From the NCBI GenBank assembly GCA_963782915.1, contig CAWALK010000022.1:32001-96000 (forward strand): a stretch of 64,000 bases of DNA, read 5' to 3'. Below the pieces are notes generated by a model. That model worked only from the letters and a program-made list of their open reading frames with translations, did no database searches and was not told the DNA's origin. Positions 44,802 through 50,218 of the stretch are shown piece by piece. Numbering within the stretch: position 1 is the first letter of the stretch; each line of letters starts with the position of its first letter. A program made the translations under genes and the position numbers. The stretch is from an uncultured archaeon (GTDB lineage: Archaea; Thermoproteota; Bathyarchaeia; Bathyarchaeales; Bathycorpusculaceae).

Positions 44802-44940
44802 TTTCAGCCCTTGTCTGATGGTATACTTCATTTTCTTTAAAAGCTTTAACAATCAGTACTTGAGCGACAGAAAAACTCAGAATATTAATGTTTACCGATA
44901 CCACTATGTTTGATGTATATTGTTTACGGTGCATTTACAA

Positions 44941-46390
44941 ATGAAAGTTACAGTTGCAGTGTTGAATAAGCATGGGGACAGCGCAGTTACAACCCTTCTT
45001 GATTTGCTAAATACGTTTGATTTCCATCAGGTTTCACATTTCGGAGTCGTTACGCCTAAGAAGAGCTTTTTTGAGAAAAGCCTGGGCATAGTTAACAGGC
45101 AAGGGTTAGACACCTCGACCTTATTGGGCTGTATTAGCTCAAGAGCGATAGTGTCGAGCGGCTACGATTTTCTGCAGTTAGATGATGCTGCACTTGCGGT
45201 AGAGGGAAGGATATACAAGCCTGTTCCAAAAACTGCACTCACCGAACAGGTTTCAAAGGAGCCCCAGCATTGCGAAACCATCTTGCAGACCCTCATAGAA
45301 GCAAGCCGACGGAGACTATGCGTTTTGGATGCTCAGGGAAGGCTGGATAGCAGCAGGAAGAGACCCAATTGGCGTTCAACCGCTCTATTATGGCGAGAAC
45401 AGGGATATTGCAGCTTTTGCCACTAACCGTACGGCTCTTTGGCGATTGGGCATCGAAAACCCATCCTCTTTTCCGCCTGGGACATTGGCGTTTGCTGATA
45501 AAGACGGCTTCAAATTCAAACCAGTAAAAACCCTAACTTACACAGAACCCAAACAGGTCACACTGGACCAAGCGGCGGAGACGCTTCAGGCACTGCTTAC
45601 CGAATCGATTGAGCGGCGAGTGCACGGCTTAAAAGAAGTCGCTGTCGCATTCTCGGGCGGCTTAGACAGCAGCATCATCGCATATTTGGCGGCTAAACAG
45701 GGCATCAAAGTCAACTTGCTCCACGTAAGCATGGAAAACGAGCCCGAAACAGAAGAAGCCATCGCAGCAGCAGAGGCACTAAACTTGCCCATGCAAGTGG
45801 ACCTCTACAAAGACTCCGACGTAGAAGCAGCCTTGCCCAAAGTTGTAGAGTTAATCGAGGAGGCTGACCCAGTCAAAACAAGCATAGGAGTGCCTTTCTA
45901 TTGGGCAGCAGAACAGGCAACTCAAGCTAAACACAAGGTTATGCTGGCAGGTCAGGGTGCAGATGAATTGTTCGGCGGCTATCAACGCTATGTTAATGAA
46001 TGTGTAAAGGAGGGCAGCGAGAAAGTTCGCAGAACTATGTTTGACGATGTGGTTAACATTCACGTAAGCAATCTTGAGCGTGATTTGAAGATTACTGGGT
46101 CCTTTGATGTAGAGTTACGGTTGCCCTTTGCATCTTACCAACTTGCAGAGTTTGCGTTGGGTTTGCCCCTTGAATGCAAAATCGAGAATAAGCCCGATAC
46201 GCTTCGGAAGCTTGTGCTGCGCAAAGTTGCCCAGAACATCGGCATGCCAGCGTCTATTGCCGACAAACCCAAGAAGGCAGTGCAGTATTCCACTGGAATT
46301 AACGATGCGGTGAAGCGCATAGCCAAAAAGCAGGAGAAAACGGTCAACGAATACGTTGGCGAACTGTTTGAGAGTGTAAAAAGCCAATGA
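44941..46390 (+). CDS. Asparagine synthetase-like protein (AsnB family, degenerate glutaminase N-terminus); frameshift near 45300
   Basis: RDPIGVQPLYY, FSGGLDSS, GQGADELFGGY and KPKKAVQY motifs; no N-terminal Cys. Confidence 0.85.
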
Positions 46391-46520
46391 GTTGAACCCA
46401 ACAGTTCAACCTCTGAGTTAACCGCTGGTTGAAGCTATATATCAGTAGCTCAAAAATTCTCTATTTTGTATAAAAACAGAGTCGAACAATTTTTACTGTT
46501 TTCATGTTCTAAACAATAAC

Positions 46521-47700
46521 CCATCGGTTTTCTCCGATGGACAAAAAAGCAACCAAGACAGCGGTTTAGCCTCTATTGGCGGTTAGTTATTTATTTATTG
46601 CATGATTGAATAAGCAAGTTAGTAGTTGCTGTTGCTGCTGTTGCTGCAACCCTGCTCCGCATAATAGTTGCAACTACTAACAAAATTACACCACCTCACA
46701 CTGGTTGATGATAACCAACGAATATTTCTGTGGTCATCATCAACTAAGCCAATCCCAATCAAATGACTCGCCAATATGCTAAACCATTGGTGCTACTGCA
46801 ACACAACCACACGGGGAGCACACAAAGAAACAACAAAAAACAACTAACACACAACATACCTCCCCATCCTCATCCCATCCCAACCAACATAGCCCATGCA
46901 GCGGATGGGACAAAAAAACCTCTTGCCCCATCCCAACACAAACACAAAAATCAGCCCAAACCAAAAAACCAACCGCCCCCACAACCTAAGCGTGGGATGG
47001 GAAAAATCCTACACATCCCGTCCCCACAAGAACAAAAAAGAAAATAAATTGGAACAGTTTATGGCATCACAGATCGACACAACGCAAAGGGATACATTCA
47101 CCCACACCTACACCCACACTCCACCAACATAGCCCCATGTACGGAGTGTTGAGACAATCAAGGATCCCACACTGCAACACAACCAGAAAATAAGCCTAAA
47201 CCCAAAAAACAACCCATACCAAAGCCCACAGTGTAGTGTGCAACCCTATAACCGCCACACCCACACAAAGAACAAAAAAGTACTTGATATGGAAAGCGCG
47301 ACTCTAACAACAAGTTACAGCATGCAATAAAAAAACCTGGCAACAAAAATGAAAACTGTTTTTTTACAGCCATAGGCTTTCTATAGTTTCAATAACAGGC
47401 TCAATTCTTTGCAGTAGATAATAGCTGGACCGCTTATGAATTCTGCGTTTAACATGGTTGTATGCTGGTTGTAGTGTAACTCGCAAGGAACAAAATTTTT
47501 TCGATCTACTGATATAGGGGAGGGGGTAGCTCGGCAGAGCAACAGATGCTTTCTGTATACAAAAGCATCACCCAAACACACAAAAACACCACACAACCAA
47601 AAACAACTGCACACAACCAAACAGCAAAACCCAACAACCCCAACCTAACCAAACAAGCCACCCCACAAACAAGCAAACCCCAAGTTTTCTCCCACCATCC
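46521..47700 (+). ncRNA. Candidate large structured non-coding RNA or structured repeat region
   Basis: No credible ORF; many nested 7-12 bp helices; G-U pairs mostly favour the + strand; loops are A/C-rich. Confidence 0.45.
46855..47290 (+). repeat. Two diverged ~240-nt tandem units with conserved loops and different but complementary stems
   Basis: CCAACATAGCCC at 46884 and 47124, and AAGAACAAAAAAG at 47028 and 47268, are each exactly 240 nt apart. Confidence 0.75.
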
Positions 47701-47802
47701 GTTGAGCCTATAAATAAGAGGGATAGAGAAAAAAACACAAGCTAGAGCTAGATGCAGTCTGGACGAGTTTTTCCTCGGCTCTGCGGAAGAATAAGGTTCT
47801 TG

Positions 47803-48651
47803 TCACCCGTCAAGTCCCTCTGTAAGCTTCTCAGCCCTTGCAGCAACTTTTTCGGCTTCCGCTTTGATTTGGGGGTCTTTCATTTCCTCTTTACGCTTCT
47901 CGTTAGACGCCAAAATGAAGCGCAACATGTCTGAGTCATAGGAGTTTAGCAGCAGCTTCGTGTTAGGAATCAAACAGTGCCCGCCAATGAAACCTGGAAA
48001 CATAATCGGGCGATCCAGCCGTTGGCGATGGGTATCTTCCAAGAAGTCTACGGTGTCATTGAAGTCTGCGCCATTCGCTCGTGCGATGCGGTGCATTTCT
48101 TGGAAACCTGCGATCATTAGGGCTCGATAGGTGGTTTCGAAGACTTTTGCTAATTCGGTTTCGCGGCAACTCTTAAGGACCTTAACTGTTAAGCCCAACT
48201 TCTCAAAATGCGCCTTTGCCAGTTTGCCTGCTTCTGGTGTTGCGCCGCCGACGTATTTGGGCCAGCGCTTCATCTCCCACAGCATATGCTCATCAGTGAT
48301 GTGGACGCCGCGTGCGGGGGAATGGACAACAAGGCAACCGCATTTCTCAGCAACCTTCAAAGTAGTTCCTGGCGGAACAGTGCTGTTAATTATTGCAAGT
48401 TTCGGGTTGTATTCTGCAACATAGTTAGCTATGATTTCAGCGAATTTATCGGGGCTACCACAAGGCAAAGCAACCTGCAACGTATCCACTTTTTTGGGCA
48501 CCTTAGCTTTGCTTTGGCCAAGGTCACGCATCTTAGCTTCATCTAAATCTAAACCGTAAACATCAAACTCTGATGCCTTCTCTTTGTACAACGCAAAAAG
48601 CGTATGGCCGATTTCGCCTAAACCGATTAGCAGCACTGTTTCCTTAACCAA
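47803..48651 (-). CDS. UDP-glucose/GDP-mannose dehydrogenase family protein (short form)
   Basis: GLGEIG, STVPPGTT, HSP, ETELAKVFET and PGFIGGHCL motifs. Confidence 0.85.
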   Translation of the reverse strand: MVKETVLLIGLGEIGHTLFALYKEKASEFDVYGLDLDEAKMRDLGQSKAKVPKKVDTLQVALPCGSPDKFAEIIANYVAEYNPKLAIINSTVPPGTTLKVAEKCGCLVVHSPARGVHITDEHMLWEMKRWPKYVGGATPEAGKLAKAHFEKLGLTVKVLKSCRETELAKVFETTYRALMIAGFQEMHRIARANGADFNDTVDFLEDTHRQRLDRPIMFPGFIGGHCLIPNTKLLLNSYDSDMLRFILASNEKRKEEMKDPQIKAEAEKVAARAEKLTEGLDG

Positions 48652-49237: not shown

Positions 49238-50218
49238 TGCGAGTCTGGTATGACGCCTGCACTGGCAAACACACCAGATACGGCTCAGCCATCGGCAAAC
49301 AACTACGAAAACAAGGCAACGAATTCATCTTCACCACCCGTGAACACCCCGACACATTACCCCTGGCGAAGTTACTTGGGGAAAAACCACTCGTAGTAGG
49401 AAAATACAACCCCTCAACACTCACCTCACGGTTGCAGGAAAGCGCTGAACGCATAATCGAATTCTCCAAAATCTTCGTAGAAAAACAAGCCAGACGTCGC
49501 CATAGCCCACCAATCAGTCGAACTGTGCAGAACAGCGTTTGGTTTAGGTATCCCAATTATTTTAACCGCTGACACTCCACATGCACTTGCCGTAAACAGG
49601 TTAACCATACCATTCGCGCATACCGTTGTAGTTTCCGAGGCGTTGCCGAAGAGTTTTACATGTACATACTGTGCGCAGAGAGTTATTCCGTTTAAGGGCG
49701 TTGATGAGGTTGCATGGATTCAAGGATTCAAACCCGCAAAAATGCCCGAAGTGAAGAAGCCGTTGATTGTGCTTCGGCAAATAGAAACCAAAGCAGCCTA
49801 CGCCAAAGGCAAACATGACAACCACCAATCAGTCGCCGAAAAACTTGCAGAGTTAGGCAACGTCCACATCGTTGGAAGATATAACGAGGGAACTGAAGAG
49901 TTTGGCCAAAAAGCAGTGTTTGAGGATACGGCAAGCCTCGTCGCCAACGCTGACTTAGTCGTCAGCTACGGTGGAACCATCAGCCGCGAAGCTGCACTCA
50001 TGGGCATCCCAAGCATCGCCATCTCAGACATGGCAAAAACCCCCGTCAACACCTACCTCGCCAAAAAAGATTTTCCGCTCTTCATAACCACAGAAGACAA
50101 AGTGCTTGGATTGGCAAAGAAGTATCTGGGCAAAAAATTCGATGTAGCCGCCAAACTTGCAGAACTCGAGAACCCAGTCGATGTTATCGCAAAAGTTGTT
50201 GAGAGTCTAAAAGCTTAG
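49237..50218 (+). CDS. DUF354 family GT-B-fold protein, frameshifted
   Basis: MRVWYDACTGKH, AFGLGIP and GGTISREAALMGIPSI motifs. Confidence 0.8.

Follow-up and report, generated by a model that had tools for sequence, protein, structure and literature searches.

What are the two structured units that lie between an asparagine synthase gene (asnB) and a convergent UDP-glucose-dehydrogenase-like gene (ugd) in an uncultured archaeon of the Bathyarchaeia? Both lie in a 64,000-nt stretch of contig CAWALK010000022.1 (assembly GCA_963782915.1), called the window below, whose positions serve as coordinates throughout; the window's own genome, G000, comprises 3.28 Mb in 25 contigs. A preliminary description of the sequence read them as tandem 240-nt units with matched stem changes around conserved loops, forming a modular RNA of the asnB-ugd spacer. 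All of the stems, words and coordinates that it quoted are present, and AAGAACAAAAAAG does recur at 47028 and 47268, a separation of 240 nt. The units themselves are neighboring members, from different subfamilies, of a dispersed intergenic repeat of ~180 nt, which we name F1. The explanation that we favor, with moderate confidence, is that F1 is a self-multiplying structured noncoding repeat confined to one genus of uncultured soil Bathyarchaeia, similar in kind to the REP/BIME, BOX, and ERIC repeats, and not a regulator of asnB or ugd.

F1 was found by BLAST of the region against G000 and its relatives, followed by iterated nhmmer searches to convergence. The F1 core measures ~183 nt; of the 28 copies in G000, 25 are near full length and 3 are partial. 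For counts across genomes, a covariance model (R1) was derived from 25 copies. It recognized F1 in 51 of the 101 genus genomes sampled (G000 included), with E values down to 1e-42, and in 34 of the 62 good-quality genomes. Outside the genus, F1 was recognized in 1 of 15 genomes from other genera of the same family and in 1 of 95 from other families of the order, the last being a weak match (E 1.5e-5). The one-contig genome G111 carries 109 copies. Close copies are separated by many indels of 1 to 2 nt, which argues that F1 is noncoding. As the preliminary description had supposed, it matches no known RNA family: an Rfam search of the whole window returned no match at the gathering score, and a relaxed search of 46300-47900 gave only three chance-level matches (E 0.28-4.9), none within the units. 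The accessible portions of the literature on intergenic repeats and noncoding RNA of Bathyarchaeia, and on archaeal MITEs (miniature inverted-repeat transposable elements), yielded no published account of such a repeat. A viral origin was considered and rejected; the sole exact-pattern match in IMG/VR sits in a 1814-aa open reading frame (ORF) and is not recognized by R1.

Unit 1 (46854-47038, + strand; R1 score 126.6 bits, E 2.5e-29; nhmmer match at C22:78854-79036 in contig numbering) belongs to type B, the subfamily with the word CCCATCC, and unit 2 (47094-47277, + strand; 115.7 bits, E 1.2e-26) belongs to type C, with the word CACAC(T). The supposed 240-nt tandem unit resolves into the ~183-nt core and a 55-nt spacer (47039-47093, + strand) that is not conserved in other copies and within which 47048-47086 has no BLAST cover from elsewhere in the genome. 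Mean identity between the two units is 78% over aligned columns, whereas the nearest paralogue of unit 1, on contig C24, is 90.9% identical and that of unit 2, at C14:81797-81612, is 84.2% identical. Each unit is thus nearer to a distant copy than to its neighbor, indicating that subfamily members have been juxtaposed rather than duplicated in tandem. The same order, type B and then type C, recurs at C15:125220/125548 and, truncated, on C14. Unit 1 was duplicated along with the block upstream of it (46463-46853, + strand, from the self-genome match), and together they (46463-47047, unit 1 and ~390 nt upstream) match C14:32239-31666 at 85.7% over 596 columns.

From its 5' end, an F1 copy comprises two words, W1 and W2, a variable stretch that contains a small hairpin (ACAT...ATGT), a complement word, W'1, followed by an A-run, and W3; then come ~65 nt of conserved C/A-rich sequence, a second complement word, W'2, with its own A-run, W4 (often doubled), and AAAGAGAAAAA. 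In unit 1 (all on the + strand), W1 lies at 46862-46869 and W2, which is the 5' arm TCCCATCC of the preliminary description, lies at 46873-46880. W'1 is GGATGGGA (46903-46910), and the pair TCCCATCC/GGATGGGA encloses 22 nt. The second stem joins W3, CCCATCCCA (46927-46935), to W'2, TGGGATGGG (46993-47001), both also recovered in the repeat listing, and W2, W3, and W4 are all possible partners of this W'2. W4, CATCCCGTCCCC (47014-47025), pairs with W'2, when read by eye, with one T-G wobble, and A/G variation among type-B copies falls at that one position. In unit 2 (+ strand), the 5' arm ACACTCC (47116-47122) is the partner of W'1, GGAGTGT (47143-47149), in the minimum-free-energy (MFE) fold, and the second stem joins CACACTGCA (47168-47176) to TGTAGTGTG (47232-47240) with one G-T pair. 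W'2 of this unit is CAGTGTAGTGTG (47229-47240), whose CAGTGT (47229-47234) pairs with ACACTG (47169-47174). Unit 1 contains CATCC five times and its complement twice, and unit 2 contains CACAC five times and its complement once. The stems differ between the units, and the blocks CCAACATAGCCC, AAGCCyAAACC, AAAAAAC, and CACAAAGAACAAAAAAG are conserved.

Four pairs of word and complement occur in G000, namely CCACAC/GTGTGG, CCCATCC/GGATGGG, CACACT/AGTGT, and CCACAAC/GTTGTG. Between subfamilies all copies of the word (~4) and of its complement (2) switch jointly. This joint switching makes a single DNA-binding protein an unlikely reader of the words and points instead to pairing within one strand. 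To assess the pairing we used an alignment of 84 copies from ~30 genomes (A3), in which covariation was compared with 500 shuffles that ignore relatedness and in which much of the signal comes from a few subfamily switches. For W1:W'1 with the small hairpin, 82.5% of the alignment cells were paired (29 to 60% when the partner was slid along the alignment), and covariation was 0.207 versus 0.153 in the shuffles, none of which scored as high. W1 columns 10 to 16 pair with the W'1 columns; pair 14-60, for example, is UA in 27 copies, UG in 27, CG in 20, and AU in 2 and is unpaired in 8. W'1:W3 likewise exceeded all 500 shuffles (89.3% paired; 0.181 versus 0.085). For W3:W'2, the second stem of the preliminary description in its type-A register, 77.6% of cells were paired and covariation was 0.074 versus 0.057, with 3 of 500 shuffles as high; for W'2:W4 the values were 84.3% and 0.134 versus 0.121, with 60 of 500 as high. 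Thus, the stem covariation first noticed between two units holds for the first stem across the family and is weak for the long-range second one. The alternative pairings proposed at the same time are possible, W'1 covarying between subfamilies both with W1 and with W3.

The 71 type-A copies, in which the core words are invariant, allow G-U and A-C mismatches to be compared. Neutral decay of a stem predicts equal numbers of the two. At W1:W'1 there were 93 G-U and 23 A-C cells (binomial p 4e-11, the cells not being independent), and at the local 3' hairpin, which W'2 forms with the following W in 29 copies, there were 25 and 4 (p 1e-4). The remaining helices showed no such excess: 10 G-U versus 28 A-C for W'1:W3 (p 0.005), 7 versus 17 for W3:W'2 (p 0.064), and 15 versus 16 for W'2:W4 (p 1). 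It follows that the 5' hairpin, and the 3' hairpin where present, is selected on the C/A-rich strand, and the alignment shows that W1:W'1 is kept on that strand through compensatory and wobble-compatible changes.

Taken singly, the units have folds that are only modestly more stable than those of dinucleotide-shuffled sequences (z of -2.26 for unit 1 and -1.81 for unit 2). Over 28 copies z averaged -2.15 when the + (C/A-rich) strand was folded and -1.35 when the - strand was, and the + strand had the lower value in 20 of the 28 (Wilcoxon p = 0.02). In the MFE structure of unit 1, which has an ensemble frequency of 0.003, W2 is joined to W'2 and W'1 to W3. With 25 copies RNAalifold picks the local alternatives W'1:W3 and W'2:W4, and with the 84 copies of A3 it keeps only five W1:W'1 pairs. 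A duplex-energy test of each copy's own word pairs against those of other copies singles out no helix, since within a subfamily every word is able to pair with every complement. The predicted folds of the units are not unique; the stems of the preliminary description can form, and so can others.

The position of F1 relative to genes gives little sign of a local role. asnB and ugd converge on a spacer that measures 1412 nt in the window; the gene matches lie ~70 nt apart in G007 and ~210 nt apart in G012, and none of the asnB loci of 19 relatives has an F1 copy within 1.5 kb. The window's spacer is a stack of repeated modules, including a copy of a second repeat family at 47496-47757. Contigs assembled from four DNA runs gave short low-depth pieces and paralogue joints, none of them spanning the spacer. 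The F1 units do not look like a feature or regulator of asnB or ugd, and the idea of a modular RNA belonging to this spacer has to be given up. Among 58 copies with long flanks, from ~30 genomes, 17 were tandem-antisense, 14 tandem-sense, 14 divergent, and 10 convergent, with 3 having incomplete flanks; these proportions are about as expected from random placement in spacers. Of 57 copies, 29 face a convergent downstream gene and 28 are followed by a co-oriented one; where the gene is convergent, its stop lies a median of 64 nt from the A-rich 3' end of F1. In G111, 49 copies lie on the + and 60 on the - strand, evenly spread and with no replication-related switch of orientation.

Copies come and go between species. 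In G079 a ~310-nt block with F1 lies between two convergent genes where G076 has ~20 nt, with flanks 81 to 84% alike; the genes of these two genomes are 81 to 89% alike at the DNA level. At a second such site, filled in G010 and empty in G000, the spacer was not alignable. Copies also cluster by genome. The tree of the 84 aligned copies requires 14 changes of genome label, whereas 500 shuffles gave 40 on average and never fewer than 30, on a tree in which genomes other than G000 and G111 contribute one copy each, which favors clustering, and in which G000 and G111 are deeply sampled and unmixed. The G000 type-A copies, the G000 type-B copies, and most G111 copies form clades of their own, and the nearest copy comes from the copy's own genome in 24 of 25 cases for G000 and in 24 of 31 for G111.

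The composition of F1 is strongly asymmetric. The family averages 37% A and 31% C (A+C, 68%), and the window's two units reach 77% A+C. Runs of five or more A residues number 2.54 per copy on average and occur in 83 of 84 copies, and runs of five or more T residues number 0.05 and occur in 4 of 84. As background, the genome has 0.51 runs of either kind per 180 nt. In archaea a poly-U stretch is sufficient for intrinsic termination and a hairpin is not needed, according to a published study (PMC7289017). Taken together with the asymmetry in oligo-T tracts, this leads to the prediction that F1 blocks archaeal transcription from its 3' side only. A polymerase entering from the 3' side would meet several terminators (~2.5 oligo-T tracts, on the G/T-rich strand), and one entering from the 5' side would meet none and pass through. 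Such one-way termination is a prediction from base composition, and it agrees with how close F1 lies to the stops of convergent genes.

If F1 is a self-multiplying repeat, selection would act on a single-stranded form of the C/A-rich strand. That single strand would most likely be RNA made by read-through, which is favored because the C/A-rich strand is nearly free of oligo-T tracts; the alternative would be a single-stranded DNA copying intermediate. Only copies, or master copies, that keep the fold would then go on multiplying.

Several observations weigh against this explanation, beginning with the enzymes that might mobilize F1. RVT_1 was found in 11 of 101 genus genomes, 3 of them with F1, and not in G000. 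Y1_Tnp (PF01797) was found in 33 of 101, comprising 13 of the 51 genomes with F1 and 20 of the 50 without it, and gave no match in the listed high-copy genomes G000, G005, G007, G014, and G043. Clear TnpB zinc-ribbon matches occur in ~5 genomes, with no association with F1 seen. None of the three tracks F1, on the assumption that every sampling of the genus took the same genomes, as their identifiers suggest. Terminal inverted repeats were not seen, the 5' end (ACATGC...) and the 3' end (...CACATAAAGAGAAAAA) not being inverted copies of each other, and the filled and empty sites of G079 and G076 revealed no clear target-site duplication. Near-identical copies are rare, pairs above 95% identity being absent from G000 and making up 0.2% in G111, so recent activity is not supported. 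Some copies persist in place: two of the G079 copies are syntenic in G076, and synteny across G000, G012, G014, and G022 holds for a copy that lies upstream of a UbiD-like gene. A host function would explain such persistence too, the excess of G-U over A-C within copies also fits selection on each copy for a host function, and gene conversion among functional genes could be another source of genome-specific clades. At one copy syntenic in G079 and G076, the entire 1.8-kb right flank is 95 to 97% alike, and the high identity of the element there is therefore uninformative about selection.

The ends of the filled G079 site share only a low-complexity T/C-rich likeness, no fixed flanking tetranucleotide is seen by eye, and the bases just before F1 vary between copies. 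Among 25 G111 copies, direct repeats between a copy's own flanks scored 5.8 versus 5.05 with the flanks of other copies (permutation p 0.001), a difference that subfamily structure may cause. Further segments of G079 were noted during these comparisons. In L116 (G079:C3:190000-209999) a ~4.8-kb segment is inverted relative to G076, with one F1 copy 64 nt from the right breakpoint and a second, in the opposite orientation, inside the segment; an inversion bounded by F1 copies was rejected, as only one of the two lies at a breakpoint. A ~2-kb G079-specific stretch in L116 gave no Pfam match. In L115 (1056-6583; G079:C3), an F1 copy ends 24 nt from the right edge of a 5.5-kb species-specific island. 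The island was considered as a larger mobile carrier and rejected; it carries a PIN gene and an RHH gene together with a fragment of a terminase large subunit, and no transposase.

The competing explanation that survives best is that F1 is a multicopy family of host small RNAs (sRNAs), or of RNA modules in longer transcripts, close to what the preliminary description proposed. Two hairpins would flank a C/A-rich single-stranded platform acting as a regulator in trans or as a protein sponge, and the copies would be homogenized by gene conversion. The compensated or wobble-compatible stem changes on one strand suit it, as do the conservation of loop and platform sequence across subfamilies, the retention of the UbiD-linked copy in four species although its upstream flank is not alignable, and a C/A-rich strand whose lack of oligo-T tracts makes transcription through F1 possible. 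However, W'1 is gone from two of the four UbiD-linked copies, inspection by eye of the aligned flanks upstream of 17 G000 and 25 G111 copies reveals neither a shared promoter motif nor a TATA-like box at a constant distance, T-runs after the 3' end are inconsistent (at variable distances or missing), 50 of the 101 sampled genus genomes have no match, and positions are mostly not syntenic. We regard a host RNA family as possible but unlikely.

We place less weight still on a bolder version of the self-multiplying repeat, in which F1 would be a new archaeal mobile element that copies itself via a folded single strand (RNA or DNA), without a known transposase or reverse transcriptase, and uses its 6- to 8-nt word as a programmable self-recognition sequence or guide. 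If so, the guide word, present ~4 times with two complements and swapped as a set, would determine which copies or targets pair. This version strikes us as doubtful.

It is very improbable that the words serve as sites where a protein binds duplex DNA, in the manner of iterons, origin boxes, or transposase sites, with the stems as a by-product. The four direct and two inverted copies of one word in each F1 copy do resemble an array, but one protein cannot read the at least four words found in a single genome (CCACAC, CCCATCC, CACACT, and CCACAAC), duplex recognition does not predict a strand-specific mismatch spectrum with G-U far above A-C, and the G111 copies have no replication-strand pattern of orientation. 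It is even less probable that each unit is a cis-acting 5' leader, such as an attenuator or riboswitch-like element, of a downstream gene or small ORF. The chain of alternative helices (W1:W'1, W'1:W3, W3:W'2, and W'2:W4) resembles an attenuator and some copies end a few bases before an ATG, but the near-equal split of downstream genes between convergent and co-oriented largely refutes a leader; moreover, the next gene in the window, ugd, is convergent, the short ORFs that follow units 1 and 2 are not common to other copies, and a T6/TATA-like stretch separates F1 from the gene at the UbiD locus. Finally, chance stems in low-complexity C/A-rich sequence, or degenerate coding sequence (Pro/Thr/Gln-rich or, on the other strand, a hydrophobic peptide), can be set aside almost entirely, for although ORFs of 67 to 94 aa overlap the units, stops being rare in C/A-rich sequence, and the z of single-unit folds is only about -2, the 1- to 2-nt indels between close copies, the strength of the family matches (E down to 1e-42), and covariation above both shuffled and slid controls refute it at the level of the family.

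The surroundings of the units deserve a brief account. The asparagine synthase gene of the window consists of two overlapping ORFs (44920-45426 and 45329-46390), whereas the listed asnB loci of the 19 relatives have a single open frame of 481 to 506 aa, with one exception of 363 aa; a frameshift, a decaying gene, and an assembly error are all candidate causes. On the other side of the spacer, the ORF resembling UDP-glucose/GDP-mannose dehydrogenases (47803-48651) has only 282 aa, with full-length matches in G007 and G012, and a DUF354 ORF (49643-50218) spans only the C-terminal half of its family profile; both may be short or broken sugar-pathway genes. Within the block upstream of unit 1, a perfect 12-bp stem (46618-46629/46670-46681; GTTAGTAGTTGC/GCAACTACTAAC) has a loop rich in TGC/TGT. 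Other type-B copies, on contigs 14, 15, 19, and 24, have this stem ~170 to 230 nt upstream, each time behind an A/T-rich stretch. Also in this block, an inverted repeat of 19 nt (GTTGATGATAACCAACGAA/TTCTGTGGTCATCATCAAC) whose arms are 3 nt apart occupies 46704-46744 and is common to the contig-14 paralogue.

The second repeat family, of which 47496-47757 is a copy, is much larger, with 287 nhmmer matches in G000 and 133 sites there that differ from GGCAGAGCAACA at no more than one position. Its 5' box, CTATAWATA-GGGGAGGGGG-N6-GGCAGAGCAACA, is TATA-like and has a small covarying hairpin; then come a C/A-rich middle and a similar 3' box (GAGCCTATAAATAAGGGGGATAGAG and an A-run). A fixed link between this family and F1 was considered and rejected; 10 of 28 F1 copies have boxes of this family within 700 nt, at no fixed distance. 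In G111, six loci (L094, L105, L107, L059, L102, and L103) share a module, TGCCCGCTGTATTGYGCTGTTCAYTG..., ~60 nt upstream of their F1 copies, and a similar module lies upstream of second-family copies in G000, so that the repeat modules occur in several combinations.

Bathyarchaeia are abundant and almost wholly uncultured, and to our knowledge nothing is known of their noncoding DNA. With 109 copies of ~180 nt, F1 takes up as much as ~20 kb of a genome, and it marks spacers that vary from species to species, the 1.4-kb one between asnB and ugd among them. If the predicted one-way block to transcription is real, it bears on how neighboring genes are insulated in compact genomes. A fold that is kept on one strand, with no known mobilizing enzyme alongside, makes the mechanism of copying a worthwhile question. 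For annotation, the locus is a caution that matched stem changes in two adjacent units need not imply a local riboregulator.

How does F1 compare with known systems? With SINE-like retroposons it shares only an A-rich 3' end, and G000 has no RVT_1 match. Like MITEs, it is non-autonomous, short, intergenic, present in many copies, and patchy among relatives, but unlike classical MITEs it shows neither terminal inverted repeats nor a convincing target-site duplication. The Qrr, LhrC, and Yfr2 sRNA families have 2 to 7 copies at conserved loci, each with its own promoter and terminator. They resemble F1 as paralogous structured RNAs, sometimes in tandem, with conserved single-stranded C-rich stretches between hairpins; F1 differs in having up to 109 copies, no visible promoter, and copies gained and lost between species. 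Palindrome-associated elements (PATEs), derived from IS200/IS605, move as single-stranded DNA. Like F1, they lack terminal inverted repeats and a clear target duplication, one strand is special, and hairpins with the same stem lie near both ends; the subterminal hairpins on one strand that characterize PATEs are present in F1 (W1:W'1 at the 5' end and, in many copies, the 3' hairpin). Yet no Y1 transposase occurs in G000 or the listed high-copy genomes or is associated with F1 across the genus, no fixed flanking tetranucleotide is apparent by eye, and the stem sequences of F1 vary between subfamilies within one genome.

The REP, BIME, and REPIN elements of proteobacteria are mobilized by RAYT (Y1 HUH) enzymes. 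They share with F1 a short noncoding intergenic form, tens to hundreds of copies, hairpins, either orientation, a frequent position near gene ends, and the possibility of composite clusters. REP sequences are G+C-rich imperfect palindromes of 20 to 40 nt in inverted pairs, whereas F1 is ~5 times longer (~183 nt), strand-asymmetric (A+C, 68 to 77%), and not palindromic, with C/A-rich loops and four words against two complements. Several stem words of F1 coexist in one genome, and the RAYT domain Y1_Tnp does not track it, occurring in 13 of the 51 genomes with F1 and giving no match in G000. The BOX elements of Streptococcus pneumoniae and the ERIC/RU elements of enterobacteria are modular, foldable, intergenic, and co-transcribed with their neighbors. 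Like F1, they measure 100 to 200 nt, have stable predicted folds and no transposase of their own, and include subtypes that lie side by side; F1 is archaeal, has no sequence relation to them, and is set apart by its extreme C/A bias and by a word and complement that are swapped together. F1 thus departs from REP/BIME, BOX, and ERIC in its size, its asymmetry, its swapped word system, and the absence of a known partner enzyme. As a dispersed, intergenic, foldable, noncoding, and enzyme-less repeat with juxtaposed subtypes, it falls among the BOX/ERIC-like elements, which form a descriptive class rather than a homology group.

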